A DNA stretch of 63,244 nt, counting the filler, from Vannella sp. (Eukaryota), in the NCBI GenBank assembly GCA_023345925.1. It is 7 parts of 7 records of this genome, joined end to end, with 100 filler letters (N's around TTAATTAATTAA, not from the genome) between each part and the next. Parts side by side here need not be neighbours in the genome. Positions count along the whole stretch, not along the records: positions 23,358 to 32,147 come from JAJQQN010000990.1; 6 more parts are not named here. One strand, given 5' to 3'. Under the pieces are notes generated by a model that was not told the origin of the DNA, did not search any database, and worked only from the letters and a program-made list of their open reading frames with translations. Shown piece after piece: positions 23,988 through 49,511 of the stretch. The first letter of the stretch is position 1, and every line of letters starts with the position of its first letter. Made by a program: the position numbers and the translations under genes.

Positions 23988-24411
23988 CCCTCCTCGAAAT
24001 GAAGGAAATGAGAAAGTTGACCAAATGTTGGATACCTCACCATGATCAACCTATACAAAGATTATTTAGAGGGGCTTCAAAGTGGAGAGAAGTCACGCGG
24101 TGGGCATTTCCCCTTGTTTGGGTCCTCTGACACCCAAAAAGAGAAAAAATGAAATCAGTCCAAAAGCTTATCCTGAAGAGATGGAGGTCATCAGGGCAAG
24201 CTACGCAAACACGAGTTCTGCCCCTTCACTCAAGGATTTCTCTTTGTCCGGCCGCCATTCTTGGACAAAATGGGTTGCCTATTAGTCCAGAGGAATGAGG
24301 CAAGACGAATCAGATTCAGGTTGAGCTCAACCTCAATGATCGATTGGTTTGCCATAATGGCAAGTTGGCTCCGGCTGGGGATTGGATGGCCGGACGGGCA
24401 GCTCATTGTTT

Positions 24412-25290
24412 ATGCGGCCTCTCTGGACCTACACACCCGACCGAACCCTCTCTGTGGACCACAGGAAGGCTCTTGAGGAGCTCTTTCAATACGACTTGCA
24501 CTTCTCAGGCAAGGAGAAGGAGGTAACGGTTCGTTCCTGGGAACACGGTGCAACCACCTCTTTCTGTCGCATGGTCTCCTTGACCGAGATCCCAGGAGGA
24601 TCCTCTTGGCGTTGGAGCCAAACCAAATCTCGCGTGCACCTCACCAACGAAGATCGCAGTTCGATCTTGGTGGCGAAGTTGGGCCCTCGGAAGAAGGGGT
24701 CTGGACCCAAATCCCCTCTTCCATCCTACAAGCTGTGGGTCTTTACGATCAAGGGAATCTGTCCAACACCCTTCAGCGTCCTCTGGTGCGAAAGGGGGTC
24801 GGAACCTCTCGAAAGACCCCCTCCCCAGCCAAGCCCACCCAACAGTCACTCAAATCCTCCTTCCAATCACTCAGAGCCACTTCCCAATCATCCACGCTCG
24901 TCCCTTAACTCCTTCCCACCCAATTCAGGCTCACCCACCAATAATCATTTCCCAATTGTGTTTATCTCAGAGTCATTTCCGCCCTCAAGCTTCCTATCAA
25001 GCCCAAGTCTCTCCAGCTCTTTGTGCCCGTCTCCCAGCTTCCCGAGCCCAAGTCTCTCCAGCTTTCTGAGTCCTGCTCTCGGCTTCCCAAGTCCAAGCCT
25101 CTCCAGCTCCCCAAGCCCAAGTCTTTCCAGCTCTCTAAGTCCTTCTTCTAGCTTGGCAAGTCTGAGTATCTTCAGCTTTCTGGACCCTCTTCCTGACTGG
25201 TCTGATGACAACTCGGTCATCATGGACCTGTTTCAAGACTTGGGGGTATTACATCATGTTCCCAAGGCTCCTCAAGATCACAGTGAATGA
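24412..25290 (+). CDS. Unknown family, paralog 1: ~130-aa conserved domain plus Pro/Ser-rich tail
   Basis: Intronless ORF; the N-terminal domain is clearly homologous to 27512-28003. Confidence 0.75.
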   Translation: MRPLWTYTPDRTLSVDHRKALEELFQYDLHFSGKEKEVTVRSWEHGATTSFCRMVSLTEIPGGSSWRWSQTKSRVHLTNEDRSSILVAKLGPRKKGSGPKSPLPSYKLWVFTIKGICPTPFSVLWCERGSEPLERPPPQPSPPNSHSNPPSNHSEPLPNHPRSSLNSFPPNSGSPTNNHFPIVFISESFPPSSFLSSPSLSSSLCPSPSFPSPSLSSFLSPALGFPSPSLSSSPSPSLSSSLSPSSSLASLSIFSFLDPLPDWSDDNSVIMDLFQDLGVLHHVPKAPQDHSE

Positions 25291-25625: not shown

Positions 25626-27344
25626 CTATTCAACGTCCACGGATATGGAAAAAGGGATGATAGGCAACCCATGGCTGCTGTAGACAATCGCTTTTGGCCA
25701 GCTGCACCAACCAAACTGGACAATTGTTATGCGGACTTCGCTTTCCAGGGCTCCCCTGGAGACAGTGAGTCGGATAACGTGGGGATGGGTGCGTTTCAAG
25801 TCATCCAGCTGGATGAAAGATCCAGTATCAAGCCGAGCCTCGAAGCCAGAGCAATACTCCTCGATGGGTCGATCAAACCGTGGATCTTTAATTGTTGGAC
25901 ATTGGGCGCTCCTCATCTCCAATCCACCCTTCCCAACCAAGTCTTTGTCAAAAATCACATCGATTAAGATGGAGTCTGTCAGATACTTCACAAGGACTCG
26001 GTCCACTGCTGGTCCATGAGATTGAATAGGAGAATGGAAAGTCTCTTCAAGCAATCGCCAGCTCATTCGCTGGCTGATGGGCTTCTTCTCTCGAGAATGT
26101 AAGTCACCGAAAGGCGAATCAGCATCGCCCTTATCATAGGCAGGAATCACTTGAACATTGGGCATTCGAGCGAGATCCATTTGAACCGCCCGAAAGTTCT
26201 CCAGGTGCGGACGTGGTACAAAAGTTGGGGCCAGTCCCACAGTAATGAAAAGAAGATCCGGTTGTCCACCAACCGATCTCCAAAACTCCAAAAGGCGGGG
26301 AAACGCACAAGCATAAAAGTTCGGTTCAAAGACATTGGACTCTCCCTGGTACCAAAGCACAGCCCTTTTCTTTAGCCTTACTACAGGATGTACCGTTCCA
26401 AACCAGGTGATACTGTCCTCCGTGGGACAACATTCGTCCTGGGGGAAATTTGAGGCGGGGCTGCCACATTCAGTCAATACCGAAGGAGGGCACCAGGTTT
26501 GAAGAGGAGAGCCGTTATTAGAGAACGATACTAACCCAATGGGAACATGCAGCTCTTCGTACATGGCCTTCCCGAAGAACCAGCAAATGGCGCTGAAATG
26601 AGTGAATGGTTCGGAGACATCTCGAATCGTCTCGTGGCTTGAAACCGTCCATGGAAGTGAAGGAGCAGTTTCCATATCAGCCAGCTCTTCCTTTGAGTCC
26701 TTTCGTCCCAAATCCATCACGCGGATGAGGGGAAAGTCGAATGTTTCACCTTCTTCGGCGTGTTTTCGCTCAGTGAAGGTCTGTGCTACTGTCAACAGCA
26801 TATTTGATTGTCCAGCACAATGATAGACATCTCCAAAGTAGACATCATTCACCTCTAGACCTTCTCCTTGGGAGTTGGTGATCAGAAGGGTGAGAGGGCC
26901 TCCTGCTGTGTGAAGTGGAAGCTCAACAGACCATCGGACTTGAGGTCTATCATAAGGTTTGACTATTTGGGAACCTCCTTGAGTGGCCAAGAAGGACATC
27001 CCCTCGTAATGAAGGACAACCTCGCAATCCAGGTCATCCGCTGCGCACCAGCCCCATACCACCGCCTGTTCGGGTGCTCGCTGTAAGACCATATGGTCGT
27101 CAAAGGCATAAGCTAACCTGAACTCCCCCTTTCGATGTAGCTCGTGGCCAAGTGGACTCAGTCCTGTGTTCGAAGAGGCGCTTTCTGATTGTGTACCGAC
27201 TTGTCGGATCTTGGGGAACCCAGCGCCCAGTGCTAGGTTTGAAGTTATCCCCATGAAGAGGAAAACCGCTACCAACGATACACCAAGCCAGGTACCCAGC
27301 AGCCCCTTTCTGCTCCCCAAAGACCGCCAGTGGAGCACTCTCAT
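25626..27344 (-). CDS. SIAE: Sialate O-acetylesterase (SASA/SGNH family)
   Basis: DHMVLQR, GDVYHCAGQSNM, FSAICWFFG, LWYQGESN, DLHSREK; N-terminal signal/anchor. Confidence 0.88.
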   Translation of the reverse strand: MRVLHWRSLGSRKGLLGTWLGVSLVAVFLFMGITSNLALGAGFPKIRQVGTQSESASSNTGLSPLGHELHRKGEFRLAYAFDDHMVLQRAPEQAVVWGWCAADDLDCEVVLHYEGMSFLATQGGSQIVKPYDRPQVRWSVELPLHTAGGPLTLLITNSQGEGLEVNDVYFGDVYHCAGQSNMLLTVAQTFTERKHAEEGETFDFPLIRVMDLGRKDSKEELADMETAPSLPWTVSSHETIRDVSEPFTHFSAICWFFGKAMYEELHVPIGLVSFSNNGSPLQTWCPPSVLTECGSPASNFPQDECCPTEDSITWFGTVHPVVRLKKRAVLWYQGESNVFEPNFYACAFPRLLEFWRSVGGQPDLLFITVGLAPTFVPRPHLENFRAVQMDLARMPNVQVIPAYDKGDADSPFGDLHSREKKPISQRMSWRLLEETFHSPIQSHGPAVDRVLVKYLTDSILIDVIFDKDLVGKGGLEMRSAQCPTIKDPRFDRPIEEYCSGFEARLDTGSFIQLDDLKRTHPHVIRLTVSRGALESEVRITIVQFGWCSWPKAIVYSSHGLPIIPFSISVDVE

Positions 27345-27511
27345 GCAAAATGAGAAAGTTTTCTAATTGCAAAAGGAATAATGGGCTGGAACTTGGCAAA
27401 AGGCCAACAGATAAAGCAGCCCGGAAGAGTCTCCCGAGAGCTCGTCTATTCCTTGAACATTTCTTGAATTTTCCTTTTTTCAGACGGAGAAAACGGTCAT
27501 TAAATTGCTTG

Positions 27512-28003
27512 ATGCGGCCTCTCTGGACCTACACCCCCGACAGGAGTCTGTCTGTTGATGTTAAGAGAGCACTGGAAGAGCTCTATCGACACAACGTGCA
27601 CTTTTCAGGAAGAAGGATAGAGGTAACGAGCCGTTGCTGGGAACAAGGTGCCTTCACCTCTTTCAGCGGTGTCATCTCTCCCATTGAGATTCCAGGAGGG
27701 CTCACTTGGCGTTGGAGCCAAGCCAAGTCCCGAGTGTATCTTACAAACGAAGATCGCAGTTCAATCTTGGTGGCAAAGTTGAGTCCTCGAAGGCGCGTTG
27801 GTGAGAGATCAGATAGTGAAGACCCTCCGCCCTCCTACAAACTATGGATCTATAAGCTACAAGGAACCAGTCCTTCGCCTTTCAGCGTACTCTGGTGCGA
27901 AAGGGGATCCGTACCTCTTGATGATTTACCAATAGGCCCCACTCCGACCCAACTCCCTTCCTCCGCCAAACCACTCATCCCAGGCTTGCCAACTTGGCTC
28001 TAA
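27512..28003 (+). CDS. Unknown family, paralog 2
   Basis: MRPLWTYTPDR...WRWSQ.KSRV.LTNEDRSSILVAKL...PSYKLW...FSVLWCERG shared with 24412-25290. Confidence 0.75.
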   Translation: MRPLWTYTPDRSLSVDVKRALEELYRHNVHFSGRRIEVTSRCWEQGAFTSFSGVISPIEIPGGLTWRWSQAKSRVYLTNEDRSSILVAKLSPRRRVGERSDSEDPPPSYKLWIYKLQGTSPSPFSVLWCERGSVPLDDLPIGPTPTQLPSSAKPLIPGLPTWL

Positions 28004-28153: not shown

Positions 28154-29904
28154 ATGCCGAAAGACGTGGTGAGTGGGAAGGTCCTGGTGGTTGCTGGAGC
28201 CTTTGTTGAGGTGTGTTGACATCGCAAAAGGCGAGGGCTGAACTCTGCTTCGATGTGGGGCGGTGTTATCGTCTGCTTACGAGGAAGGTACCTGAAGGAG
28301 GCCGGGTGAACCGCTCCGCGGCGGTCTTTTTGACTGCTGTTCTGGAGTACATCGTCAACGAGACTCTGACTGTCGCTCTCAACGAGGTTCCGACTGTCGC
28401 TCTAAACGAGGTTCCGACTGTCGCTCTAAACTTCATGAGGCGCGTTGGAAGTCAGTGGCTCATATCCGTATGATCGAAAAGAAAGAGTGATTGGGAGGGA
28501 ATACTAGGTTGTAGGTGTTTCATCTTGATTCATATTCGTTTTAGTCTTTTTCACTCATGAAGGAGCTTTTAGAAAGTGAGTGGCTCCTCCCCAACCCTCA
28601 GATGCTTAACTCGCTTTCAAGAACGTGAGTAGCTATTCACCTATCTCGCACACAATACGCTCCAACGAAAAGCTGGCCACGAGTGCTCTATTTAGTGGGT
28701 ATGCGCAGGGAATTAAACGGGAGAGGAGGAAGAGTAAAGCTGGGTCTCTCATTCACGAAAACAGGAAGTACGTAGATAAGTGGAAAGCATAGAGAGGACT
28801 AACCAACGAACCCCTTTAGAGGGTAAGATGATAGATTAAGGAGGGATGTGCGAAAACTCATGGAGTGCTTCGTCCTCTATTCTATCAAACAAGGACTAAC
28901 AGTCATTTTGGACAGACTTTTCTTGGCAATGCTTGCCATTCAGGGGAAGGCGAGTTGGTGAAGTATTTGCTTTCTTTACGGTGCATTGATGTCCAACAAC
29001 CAGTAAGTTGAAGTTGGGCACTTGCGAGTTGACTATACTGACCAATGCTTAAGTTGTTCCGGTAGTCTTTTTAGCATCGAAAAGGAGATGCTTGTTTACG
29101 CCACTCACTGCAGGGGATGTATTCAGGTGTACTCGAATGCAACTTATTTACGACAGTTTTAGCGTGTAAGTGCCTCTATCATACCATTGGAGAGTTTGAT
29201 GGTTGCGTTTGTAGTTTCCTCTTACCAAATAGCATAGTTTGTGAGTTCTTCTTCAATCTATCTGGCACGTTTTCTCACTGAATCGCATTCAGCACGTAAG
29301 TTGATGTATTTCAGAGGAAGCCTTTCTGAATAACAGAGCAAACGCATTTAGAGAGTATGGACAATCACCTTGGAGAATCTATCTAATCAGAGGGAATTCA
29401 GCAAGTGACACTCCAAGCCCGAAAATGGGCTGCAAGATGAAGAATACTGACAGAGCTTTCTCTGGGGAGTAAGAAAGCTATCAGCGGTTCAGAGAGTCGA
29501 TGGAAGGCAACTCCTCACCAAAGGCCCGTAGGGAGTAAGTGGGCAAATTTTATCTGATGAAAGGGATCCCTTACATTTTTGCTTCAGTGTGTGAGATTGG
29601 CCTTCTCTCATTGTTCAAAATGATGGGATGTGCTCCTAACTGATGGAGTCGTTTATTGCTCGAACTACATTTGTTTGAGTATAGCTTAAACGTTGGGGTT
29701 ATTAGTATGCTGGTAAAAGAGTAAGGCGAGATGGATGGGCCTCATCAAATCAATTGCCTGCAGATGGTATGTAACCTTTCCTTCCATCTCTGAGAGAAGA
29801 GAGAATTCATCACAAAGGATAAGACAGCAATTGAAATAGCTCTCAACAAAGGGCATGGCGAAGTCGTCAATTTGTTTCTGCAGGAGGAATACGCGACCCA
29901 GTGA
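28154..29904 (+). CDS. Histone H2A-like fold fused to ankyrin repeats, interrupted by two arrays of 3-nt microexons
   Basis: H2A-like ARAELCFDVGRCYRLL...RVNRSAAVFLTAVLEYI to donor 28468; ankyrin exon 28916-29002 (TFLGNACHSGEGELVKYLLSLRCIDVQQP); ankyrin exon from 29818 (DKTAIEIALNKGHGEVVNLFL); start and end uncertain. Confidence 0.75.
28357..28431 (+). repeat. In-frame 24-bp tandem repeat x3 (NE[TL/VP]TVAL)
   Basis: aacgagactctgactgtcgctctc followed by aacgaggttccgactgtcgctcta twice. Confidence 0.95.
28468..28915 (+). other. Microexon array 1A: six single-codon exons
   Basis: AG|NNN|GT at GTT 28508, AAA 28573, AAC 28622, TGG 28696, GAA 28765, AGG 28820; donors GTAGGT/GTGAGT/GTGAGT/GTATGC/GTACGT/GTAAGA. 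Confidence 0.85.
29003..29817 (+). other. Microexon array 1B: eight clear single-codon exons plus about five ambiguous or degenerate slots
   Basis: CGT 29163, TTT 29238, CAC 29293, AGA 29352, CAA 29402, GGA 29532, TGT 29588, ATG 29764, each YAG|NNN|GT. Confidence 0.82.
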
Positions 29905-30219: not shown

Positions 30220-31573
<1,354 letters not shown>

Positions 31574-32147: not shown

Positions 32148-32247
32148 NNNNNNNNNNNNNNNNNNNNNNNNNNNNNNNNNNNNNNNNNNNNTTAATTAAT
32201 TAANNNNNNNNNNNNNNNNNNNNNNNNNNNNNNNNNNNNNNNNNNNN
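32148..32247. other. Artificial contig linker
   Basis: N44-TTAATTAATTAA-N44. Confidence 0.98.
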
Positions 32248-35513: not shown

Positions 35514-37993
35514 TTATTGGAGATTGCACTTCTCTTTGTGCTTCTTCTTGCTAGTGGAGATTTCCTTGATTTGGGGGTCAGCAATTGGAGTTGAGATGCT
35601 CTCGAGAATCTCGGTGGCCATCACGCTAAAGAGCTCCTTGACATTGAACTCGGTCTTGGCGGAGGTTTCCAAGAGGGAAATGTTAAGCCCATCAGCGAAT
35701 TGCTTTGCAGTGTCGAAGTCGATAACCTTTAAAGTGGCCGAATCACACTTGTTGCCAACCAGGAACCTCTTGGTTCTATCAAGAGCGCATTGATCAGCGA
35801 GAGCCAGCCATCGATCCAGATTTGCAAAGGAATTGGGATTTGTAACATCGTACATGATGATGACTCCAAGAATTCCTACGAATCCATGACGACCATTGGC
35901 AAGGCGCAACGTCTCATCAATTTCGAGCTTAACAGACTTACCTCCAACCACGATCGTCTTGTTGGCCCCGCCCGAACCGAACAAATCATCAGGGAGAGGC
36001 TGACCCTCTGTGAAGGTTTCGTCCACAAACCGGCGAATCAAGGAGGTCTTGCCCGATCCACTGTCTCCAATAACCTTCAGCTTGAAGAGGTGATCGTACT
36101 TGGGCGGAGGGATGAAGCGAGGTCTTCCACCCGCCTTCTTCAGACCCTCCTTGATTTCGGGAATTGTGCTCTTCATCTCCCATGGCGACTTTGTACCGAT
36201 CTCATTAGACCATCCCTTTGGAGCAATGTAAAAACTTACTACCTGAACGAATCCTATTGGTAACTTGCTCTCGGAAGTCTCCAATTGCCACTTACCTCCT
36301 GCTAAAGTGATAAGGCAAGCGCTTGGGGATGGCCGATGGTGCTCACATTCTATTAGGCGGTGCATCAGATTCTAGTCTCCAAATGAAGGGACTGAATTGA
36401 ATCAAATCAATTACTTACGGTCTGAAAGTCCGCCTTAGGTAAGGTTGCATCCATTCCCTGACTAACTAGCTTACGGTCTAAAGGAGAATGGTACTGAGCA
36501 AGTCACCTCGATGAGATCTTTACTTACATACTAATTCCCGGTCATCAATGGGTCTTAATGCTTACGAAATAGATCTTTACCCACCCTCTGTGTATGGTCA
36601 ATTAGAGATCCCCTCCAGCTATTTACTCACAGCCTAGAAGAGAAAATAATAAGATAATGGTCATCCCTTTCGAGATCAGCCCTTCTTACAGTCTAAAAAT
36701 CGAAATTTGGTGAAAACTACTCTTCCTCCTCTTCAGATTACTTACAGCCTAGATAGAACAACCTATGAGTCTACTTTACGTCTCCATTTAAGGTATCGCT
36801 AACATGCTGAATGAGAGCCTTTGATGAGTATCAAATCCACTCAAACTTGCTCATCAACTCACACACTAATGAAGAGAATCATCGTTAGTAAAGGGGGAGA
36901 GCATTCTTAGAGCTCACTCCTTCATGAACGTTGATAGCACGACGAGAAAGCAAGTATTCAACGAATTCAGTTTTTCCATAAGCAGTTGCCAACCCAAGGT
37001 AGGTCTGGGAAGGTTATTCCAGCAGTTGATTGGGAAAACGACTTACCCACTGTTGACATTTTGTTGGCATGTTGCATCCTCTTTCTTTGAATCGAAAAAG
37101 CTTACATGCTGAAGAGGACGATGAGTAAATGTTGCCTCCATCTGTTAAAGGCGCTTGAAACTCTTACTTTCTTCTCAAAACCGGCAATTATTGTTTACTT
37201 TTCAAATGAAGTGGCCACTTACGGACTAAACCCTCAACCATAAGCAATCGCCGTGACTCTTCCATGGTTAATCACTCACACTCTTGGGAAACCGGGTGAG
37301 GATCTATTTTAAGATAATAAAAGGATCCAGGAAACTTTCTCTTCCTTTCCTATTCAAGAGAAAGTGCCTTCGGACTCACATTCTAGAATGGTTTCTGTGA
37401 AAATCCAATTCTGAGTCTCTTCCTCAAAGTCACTCACGCCATACTAACGTTTGTCCCTTTGAAGTGAGATTATGATTCAGTCACAGGCTGAGAGAGACTT
37501 TCTACTAACAGTCTAAAGGGTGTGAGTGAGGATCACATCTTCTCCTCATCAGAGATGGTCCAAAGTCCCTTACAAACTGAAGTTGAGACCTTTTGGTGAG
37601 ATTTACAGCGTTCTAATGAAAGATACAATATCACTTCCACATACCTCCTGTAGCTGCCTAGTGAGCTCAAAGAAGGTCTAAATAGACGTTCACCTACTTC
37701 CTAAGGCCATGGTCAGACATGTCCGCCCTAAGCCGTGAGCCTCGACCCTTGATCATAACTAGGTACAGACACTTACATGCTAAGCGAGCAGCTATGGTGT
37801 GAGTCCCTTCGAACGAGAGTTTCCTTCGCCCCACCCACGTACTAGAAGAGATCCCCGCCATCAGCACTGCTCCATTCTCTTCGACTGAAGAGAGGATACC
37901 CACTTCGTTGAGCTTCCTCGGATCCTCGTCCAAGATAGCCACCAGCACAGGCAGCTCCCAACCAGTCCCAGCGTCCCAAACTACTTCGGTCAT
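35514..37993 (-). CDS. Ankyrin-repeat protein with two arrays of 3-nt microexons, fused to a degenerate Rab1-like GTPase with a CaaX box
   Basis: Exon 37904-37993 MTEVVWDAGTGWELPVLVAILDEDPRKLNE; exon 36918-37004 TYLGLATAYGKTEFVEYLLSRRAINVHEG; final exon 35514-36188 SPWEMK..LKKAGG then YDHLFKL..GDSGSGKT, NKCD, ETSAK, CNLQ; all junctions phase 0. Confidence 0.85.
36189..36917 (-). other. Microexon array 2B: twelve single-codon exons
   Basis: In transcript order (lowest coordinate given): TGT 36863, CAT 36804, GCT 36746, ACT 36690, GCT 36631, AGG 36585, TAT 36528, ACC 36475, ACC 36419, AAT 36347, (CAG)GAG 36296, GTA 36240; introns 43-69 nt. Confidence 0.9.
37005..37903 (-). other. Microexon array 2A: thirteen microexons (twelve 3-nt, one 6-nt)
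   Basis: In transcript order: TAC 37839, CAT 37777, GAA 37698, GAG 37645, TTT 37574, ACT 37510, TATGGC 37438, AAT 37380, AGT 37280, TCC 37223, AAA 37168, CAT 37106, TGG 37047; introns 42-97 nt. Confidence 0.9.
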
Positions 37994-41612: not shown

Positions 41613-41809
41613 AACCCCGTTCTGCATGTGTGCCCGTCTTCCCCCATCGTCACGGCCTTCGTCGTAACTGATAAACATCGCTATGAGCTGTTCACCCGTC
41701 GGGAACCTCCGGAAAAGAGAACAAGGAGAGTTTAGTTCAACCCAGAGGATGACAGAAACGAGGGAATCTGGATCTGCTGTACAAAGGAGGGAAAGAGGGG
41801 CCGCAAGTC

Positions 41810-42606
41810 TCACATGACCAGGCACTTCTTCCTCTTCTTAGGGGCGAAGAGAACAGCCTTAACTGCCTCATCGAAGACTGTTTTCAAGTTCTCTCCAGTC
41901 TTGGCGGAGCACTCCAAGTACTTGATCGCCTTAATTTTCTTAGCGAGTTCGTTACCCTACAGAAGAGCAGAAAGGGTCAGCTAACTTGCTTGTACTTCCA
42001 CACACCATGCAAAAATGCATCAGAAGGAGTGAGGAGGCGACTCACCTGGTCAGCAGGGATGGGTTGTTGCCCCAAGCTCTTGAGCTTGTCAAGAGTTCCT
42101 GAATCACCTCTCAAATCCAGTTTGGTGCCGACAAGGATCTGTGGAACCTCAGGACAGAAGTGGATGACTTCAGGGTACCACTTGCTGGTGACGTTTTCGA
42201 ACGACACGGGGTTCGTCACCGAGAAACAGACGAGGAAGACGTTGGCGTTCGCGTAACTGAGAGGACGAAGGCGATCATACTCTTCTTGCCCTATTAATGC
42301 AGTTAGATTGTGTTCCCTTACCCTCCCGAGGACAGAAAAAAAGAAGGCTCACCAGCTGTGTCCCAAAGACCCAACTCGATGGTCTGTTCTCCTGCTGTGA
42401 GATTGACAACATAGTTATCAAACACTGTGGGAATGTAGTCCTCAGGGAACCGGTTGTTGGCGTAGCTGATAAGCAGGCCTGAACAATACCGCGTTAGTGG
42501 AGGGACATCGAGGACCTCATCGCATCTACGCGAGACAAGACCACCTACAGGTTTTTCCGACAGCACCATCACCAATAACCACAAGTTTGATTCCCTTTGA
42601 GGTCAT
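41810..42606 (-). CDS. racC: Rac/Rho GTPase, closest in pattern to Dictyostelium RacC
   Basis: [51 protein letters not shown], CaaX CLVM. Confidence 0.88.

Positions 42607-47724: not shown

Positions 47725-49511
<1,787 letters not shown>

Follow-up and report, generated by a model that had tools for sequence, protein, structure and literature searches.

Arrays of candidate one-codon exons at the hairpin position of ankyrin repeats in two related genes of a non-fungal eukaryote

Two ankyrin genes contain arrays of predicted one-codon exons

Two genes were found to contain arrays of predicted exons of a single codon next to constant ankyrin exons. We consider it about evenly balanced whether these exons are spliced in varying subsets, which would give a constant ankyrin scaffold with many binding loops per gene. 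The two genes were located on different contigs of the analysed window, a stretch of 63,244 nt, filler included, that joins seven eukaryotic contigs with N spacers between them. Gene A (28211-29904, plus strand) consists of a histone H2A-like exon, array 1, an ankyrin exon, array 2, and a last ankyrin exon, and gene B (37993-35514, minus strand) consists of exon 1, array 1, an ankyrin exon, array 2, and a Rab1-like last exon. The initial annotation had described the architecture as a recurring one, with gene A on another contig and strand than 35514-37993, and both points held: the N spacer 32148-32247 lies between the two, and gene B has the same layout as gene A.

Runs of AG-codon-GT sites were observed within the window only in gene A and gene B. 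The comparison with shuffled sequence that had been proposed for such runs was performed on the window, and gave observed runs of 7 and 11 versus a longest run of 4 in 200 block shuffles. The region 28468-29904 contained 12 sites of the strict pattern YAG-NNN-GTR[AGT], compared with 1.14 ± 1.07 expected and a maximum of 6 in 2000 dinucleotide shuffles. Once AAG and GTAC variants were counted, gene A had 14 sites, 12 of which fit the strict pattern. The enrichment in gene A was limited to an exon length of 3 (12 matches), while the other lengths from 0 to 12 gave 0-2 matches, except for length 7 with 7 matches, an excess that we read as a probable echo of the GTRAGT donor. Phase 0 was kept throughout the arrays of both genes. 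Adjacent array introns did not resemble each other (identity 0.18-0.32), with pair scores near those of shuffles (best 8.0 versus 7.5). This lack of resemblance suggests that the arrays are likely old. A tandem-repeat artefact was rejected for the window.

Anatomy of gene A

The upstream exon of gene A (28211-28467, plus strand) was partially histone H2A-like, matching PDB H2A.Z over residues 3-62 (E=3e-9). In a search of 1.84 billion proteins, its top matches were H2A, in 8 of the 8 that were checked with Pfam, and the exon itself had no Pfam Histone match. A complete histone fold with the C-terminal docking region was not found, as the H2A match covers residues 3-62 only and is then followed by a tandem repeat, three copies of a 24-nt unit at 28357-28431 (plus strand) at the end of the match. 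No ankyrin fusion was found among relatives of the H2A-like exon in the 10 of 52 matches examined, all of which were ordinary or duplicated H2A. Two start codons are candidates. Use of ATG 28154 would depend on an intron of 38 nt that has a GAG acceptor and is shorter than all 73 other introns measured (minima of 40 nt in the arrays and 43 nt in ordinary introns), and the in-frame ATG 28435 would give only 11 codons before array 1 and omit the H2A part.

The six one-codon exons annotated upstream of the ankyrin exon were all present between AG and GT (array 1, 28508-28822, plus strand: V 28508, K 28573, N 28622, W 28696, E 28765, and R 28820), each of 3 nt in phase 0, with introns of 40-93 nt. 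So were the eight 3-nt exons downstream of it (array 2, 29163-29766, plus strand: R 29163, F 29238, H 29293, R 29352, Q 29402, G 29532, C 29588, and M 29764). The constant ankyrin exon between the arrays (28916-29002, plus strand, 87 nt, phase 0/0) had ankyrin matches, with Pfam Ank_3 at E=0.015, which is below the cut-off, and PDB ankyrins at a best E=0.039. The second annotated ankyrin exon, the last exon of the gene (29818-29904, plus strand), encodes a terminal ankyrin repeat and a stop, and matched PDB ankyrin repeats with a best E=3.3e-8. With an alternative acceptor this exon would start at 29824, and the GTGAGT at 29901 may lead to a further exon. The annotated spacing of 45-75 nt applied to adjacent slots, where introns were 40-72 nt, and did not apply to four introns of 93-173 nt.

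Up to five slots in the array 2 region were doubtful. Two of these have a strong donor, GTAAGA at 29469 following the slot 29454-29468 with no AG three bases upstream, and GTAAGG at 29721 following the slot 29706-29720 with no AG at the 3-nt position (both plus strand), and each could be read in frame as an exon of 15 nt, or else as a 3-nt exon whose former acceptor has been lost. More ambiguous slots were located near 29054, 29114, and 29649. The ambiguous start, the tandem repeat inside H2A, and the degenerate slots were counted against splicing in varying subsets. They could mean that gene A is a paralog in decay while the rest of its family works, so that the system would be real in gene B while gene A would yield little or no protein, and this we regard as unlikely. 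An H2A-like exon without a clean start codon, a 24-nt triplication where the H2A match stops, and three long introns (127-173 nt) with broken-looking slots, two with a strong donor but no AG, would all fit decay. However, AG and GT are kept at 14 slots, no stop interrupts the ankyrin exons and their borders are intact, both half-sites are readable as 15-nt in-frame exons, and the in-frame ATG 28435 exists.

Two paralogous ORFs on the same strand (24358-25290 and 27257-28003, plus) share a domain of about 130 residues, for which no Pfam match was found. The second is located directly upstream of gene A, and an Atlas search of the ORF upstream of gene A gave no match.

Anatomy of gene B and its kinship with gene A

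All features of gene B are on the minus strand. Exon 1 (37904-37993) begins with ATG, contains 30 codons, and has no Pfam match. Array 1 (37047-37841) contains twelve 3-nt exons and one 6-nt exon, with an alternative P slot at 37487. This slot and the candidate slot at 37512 are 25 nt apart, too close for joint use, and may therefore form a mutually exclusive pair. The constant ankyrin exon (36918-37004, 87 nt) matched the DARPin 4hrm at E=2.8e-6, and array 2 (36240-36865) contains twelve 3-nt exons. An acceptor only 24 nt past the last codon of gene B was discarded because the intron would be too short; the alternative of 51 nt has a CTAAT branch site. The last exon (35514-36188) encodes a short segment that looks cap-like by eye and then a Rab1-like GTPase domain, for which Rab1A was the best match (E=1.2e-39; PF00071 E=4e-28). 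Its P-loop, NKCD, and ETSAK align with Rab1A, and the switch I Thr and the DTAG (G3) are replaced; a set of intact G1-G5 motifs of a Rab1 GTPase was not found in gene B. The C-terminal end is one that we take to be CaaX-like.

Residues 1-62 of the frame 36218-35517, the first ten of which are likely intronic, had no relatives at E<=1 among proteins of 128-410 residues. A 19-nt inverted repeat (89%, 37109-37127 and 36718-36736) flanks the ankyrin exon of gene B, and the number of such repeats was not above that in shuffles.

Gene A had been introduced as a second, independent gene. It is indeed a separate locus, and an independent origin was not borne out: the ankyrin exons of genes A and B are identical at 14 of 28 positions (50%), with equal length and equal phase. 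These results suggest that the two genes are likely paralogs from one inherited family, not separate inventions. Two of the seven contigs, which span 63 kb in all, each carry one of these paralogs, and each paralog was fused to a derived host domain, a partial H2A in gene A and a Rab1-like domain with altered switch motifs in gene B.

The arrays occupy the hairpin position of the ankyrin repeat

The borders of the predicted exons place the arrays where ankyrin repeats have their beta-hairpin. The T of TPLH is the first residue encoded by each 87-nt exon, which encodes 29 residues in all, and the repeats of the DARPin 4hrm start at 50, 83, and 116, with a period of 33. Therefore, about 4 residues, corresponding to the beta-turn, are left to the array. 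For array 2 of gene A, two residues are needed if the last exon starts at 29818 and four if it starts at 29824. The length needed at the first array of each gene is undefined, because the exon upstream of it is not a full repeat. The numbers of exons per array, 6 and 8 in gene A and 13 and 12 in gene B, exceed the canonical hairpin need of about 4 residues. This excess supports variable inclusion, since all four loops would be longer than canonical if every codon were always spliced in. The codons of the arrays include no Asp and one Gly. Asp and Gly are the residues of the canonical ankyrin hairpin consensus, and their near absence was counted against variable inclusion. According to passages of PMC6977956, the binding surface of ankyrin proteins includes the beta-turn, into which loops can be inserted, and in LoopDARPins a longer loop takes the place of the turn.

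Splice signals and codon composition of the arrays

The array introns were compared with 30 ordinary introns annotated by hand in eight conserved genes of the window, 3 of 33 candidates having been dropped as ambiguous. Ordinary introns were 43-205 nt long (median 51.5) and array introns 40-173 nt (median 55). The introns between adjacent slots in both genes (40-97 nt) were of about ordinary length, so nothing forces the exclusion of exons. Donors after codon exons were stronger than those of the 30 ordinary introns (3.38 versus 2.87 consensus matches, P=0.011). Of the 39 array introns, 28 had CTNAY 6-30 nt upstream of the acceptor, compared with 7.6 in shuffles. CTAAC/CTGAC-like branch points, which had been noted in several introns, were present, but with both genes pooled CTRAY was rarer than in ordinary introns (8/39 versus 19/30, P=4e-4). 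CTCAY was found in 14/39 array introns, versus 1.8 in shuffled sequence and versus 4/30 in ordinary introns, the last difference being borderline (P=0.052).

Two observations were made on other genes. A GC-AG intron (31153-31204, plus strand) was located in a dTDP-glucose dehydratase-like gene, named by eye, and the 205-nt intron (48037-48241, plus strand) in a STE20-like kinase gene, while the other 29 ordinary introns were 43-89 nt.

The amino-acid make-up of the 38 three-base codons differed from that of intron trinucleotides (P=0.009) and from that of seven long ORFs/proteome (P=0.010). There were no Leu or Ile codons (about 6 expected) and 10 F/W/Y/H codons (4-5 expected), in classes that were chosen after seeing the data, and there were no stops, a result that alone is not significant (P about 0.06-0.09). 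The splice signals persist while the remaining intron sequence has diverged and the codons are non-random, which argues for their use as surface-loop exons over decay or wholesale skipping. It is therefore very improbable that each array is removed as a single long intron and that the codons never enter the mRNA; the frame would be kept on such skipping, but repeats of 29-31 residues without a hairpin would be left. From the maintained splice signals and the codon bias we infer that the codons are included, and likewise that the combinations may vary. On sequence, however, signal and codon evidence does not separate variable from constant inclusion.

Constant inclusion, to which we give a clearly lower chance than to varying subsets, would mean that all codons are always spliced in to form fixed hairpin loops of 6-14 residues, and that variation arises over evolutionary time, by gain and loss of units and by codon change, not within the cell. 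With all codons spliced in, GT-AG was found at 43 of 43 junctions and neither gene had an internal stop; these open products would fit constant inclusion, as would the ordinary intron lengths and the strong donors. It is also in line with LoopDARPins, which fold and bind with long beta-turn insertions (passages of PMC6977956), and with Drosophila sowah, for which annotated exons of 3, 3, 6, and 12 nt are given in Table S4 of PMC8042270. Duplication of the unit alone also gives uniform 3-nt phase-0 exons, which counts against variable inclusion. On the other hand, the branch points ahead of codon exons were weaker than ordinary ones, and it would be unexplained why a fixed loop should bear the cost of 16-27 introns.

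Comparison with known systems

The nank (NACHT-ankyrin) NLR genes of Tuber melanosporum are described, in passages of PMC4986451, PMC13449251, PMC9815663, and PMC3689799 citing Iotti et al. 2012 (PMID 22289772), as containing tens of alternatively spliced 3-bp mini-exons that diversify the C-terminal recognition domain. As far as these passages go, a layout with one-codon exon arrays is already precedented by the nank genes, and the alternative splicing of their 3-bp ankyrin-receptor exons was counted for variable inclusion and against constant inclusion. In both systems, codon-sized exons follow one another in runs within ankyrin genes and the frame is kept whichever subset is used, and in both a diversified recognition domain is proposed. 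The many 3-bp exons were also found here, 14 in gene A and 24 plus one of 6 nt in gene B, and so were ankyrin repeats. Unlike nank genes, genes A and B have no NACHT upstream of the repeats: the only match, at E=0.11, covered the P-loop alone, and the upstream exons were H2A-like in gene A and of 30 codons in gene B. Further features are particular to genes A and B, namely arrays that alternate with single-repeat ankyrin exons at each hairpin, old and diverged introns unlike each other with a shifted branch motif, fusion to partial H2A-like or Rab1-like domains, and a non-fungal instead of a fungal host.

The host was examined with the TDH of another contig, which fell outside the clade that unites fungi, animals, and Capsaspora with an SH-aLRT of 100, in a single-gene tree made by a quick method. 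The tree was made from 119 of the 120 listed TDH hits, with the long fish protein P0069 left out, and the placement assumes a single host for all contigs. The TDH had relatives at 70-84% identity, while those from named organisms reached 58% at best, and the importin-4 was 57-69% identical to JGI proteins and 37% or less to all further relatives. At 41800-42600, a Rac gene looks similar to amoebozoan RacC, and we read the host as a non-fungal protist that may be amoebozoan.

The microexons of Drosophila sowah (rows of 3, 3, 6, 12, and 27 nt in Table S4 of PMC8042270) are similar in that one-codon exons occur in an ankyrin gene. However, sowah has two 3-nt exons at kilobase spacing, whereas 6-13 per loop at a spacing of about 55 nt were found here. 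Arrays of the Dscam type consist of mutually exclusive exons, tandem alternative units in a recognition protein. The arrays here would likewise be tandem alternative units in a predicted recognition protein, but the codon exons are not duplicated domains and their co-inclusion is not sterically barred. Docking/selector pairing of the Dscam type was rejected, with duplex z-scores of -2.2 to +1.2 in 8 tests; inverted repeats numbered 1 versus 1.3 in shuffles for gene A and 4 versus 2.0 for gene B, with 6 of 60 shuffles as high. In DARPins and LoopDARPins (passages of PMC6977956), as proposed for genes A and B, the ankyrin scaffold is constant and the beta-turn either varies in its residues or carries a longer inserted loop. 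DARPin libraries, however, are engineered, and helix positions, which are constant in genes A and B, are randomised in them too. No report of one-codon exon arrays in amoebae or other protists was found in a literature search that covered titles and abstract openings, with most subscription papers and bioRxiv supplements outside its scope.

A model for variable inclusion

If subsets of the codons are spliced, as in our preferred reading, each 40-100-nt intron would be recognised singly. A strong donor would commit a codon exon once its acceptor has been chosen, and the weaker branch points (CTCAY, not CTRAY) would let a donor skip past some acceptors. Every subset would be in frame, with 2^6 x 2^8 possible combinations for gene A and 2^13 x 2^12 for gene B. 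The arrays would likely have been born by an old duplication of an intron-plus-codon unit. The step of the model with the least support is the recognition of non-self proteins, which is proposed by analogy with the nank receptors of Tuber.

Variable inclusion would provide hundreds to millions of binding surfaces from one short gene, with diversification at the loop that is also varied in engineered DARPins. Splice-based receptor diversification, in print for one truffle family, would then reach a non-fungal unicellular eukaryote. Even with constant inclusion, the 6-13 consecutive 3-nt exons would be a compact test of the spliceosome on back-to-back minimal exons, and the contrast between CTCAY and CTRAY leads to a direct hypothesis for what sets inclusion.

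A broader proposal, which we think improbable, is that the genes form a natural DARPin library of a protist. Small ankyrin sensors would have hairpin loops built residue by residue through combinatorial splicing, with thousands of variants per loop, and the altered host proteins fused to them (H2A and Rab1) would serve as integrated decoys, or as anchors, for the effectors of parasites. Recognition would then be somatically diversified in a unicellular eukaryote outside the fungi, with an origin separate from that of truffle nank. A decoy role for the H2A-like and Rab1-like domains is speculation. According to abstract openings, Legionella effectors target Rab GTPases in amoebae, and the term 'integrated decoy' was not found in the titles and abstract openings of the literature matches on Legionella effectors and Rab GTPases.

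One-codon exon arrays in metagenome contigs

The three-codon pattern was found in at least 126 stretches of metagenome contigs, at no fewer than 124 loci. Diverse arrays (at least 7 codons, at least 5 kinds) were observed at 81 of 124 loci among the matches listed, 75 of them without a stop. The same diversity filter passed 1 of 28 prokaryotic and 0 of 20 viral loci, which were obtained with a slightly looser pattern and were mostly repeats. After 7 loci had been dropped as duplicates, stops made up 6 of 747 distinct codons at 75 loci among the matches listed, compared with 35 expected, which also argues against the removal of whole arrays as single introns. The scan indicates that one-codon arrays are common, and gene callers likely miss them.

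In 68 metagenome arrays among the matches listed, CTRAY was the majority branch motif in 44 and CTCAY in 5. Arrays of this kind therefore do not generally have weak branch points, which counts against the proposed mechanism. Unlike those of genes A and B, the array introns were alike within a locus (median 0.60; 2 of 72 at or below 0.35, among the matches listed). No relative of genes A and B was found among the metagenome loci listed, where the best ankyrin matches were at E=0.06-0.12, and a candidate 87-nt exon between arrays was present in 0 of 11 gaps at metagenome loci among the matches listed. Flank domains were searched in 94 segments of loci long enough to test; 89 of these had no Pfam match at E<=0.001, two loci had NACHT upstream, and one had ankyrin exons.

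In the locus L068 (221-298 and 739-6567), each ankyrin repeat has an exon to itself and about 80 codon exons come after them, a nank-like layout, and NACHT/NPHP3_N domains are located upstream of arrays of about 31-32 codon exons in L030 (1334-2944) and L054 (1882-2961). At six loci (L055, L060, L061, L080, L082, and L095), arrays of 21-62 codons were preceded by a P-loop GTPase exon whose MMR_HSR1/Arf matches were weak. By sequence, these six appear to be a further family with the codon-array layout that is not NACHT-ankyrin. The codon-exon arrays of L071 and L084 were located on contigs of 25% GC, while most others were on contigs of 35-55% GC.
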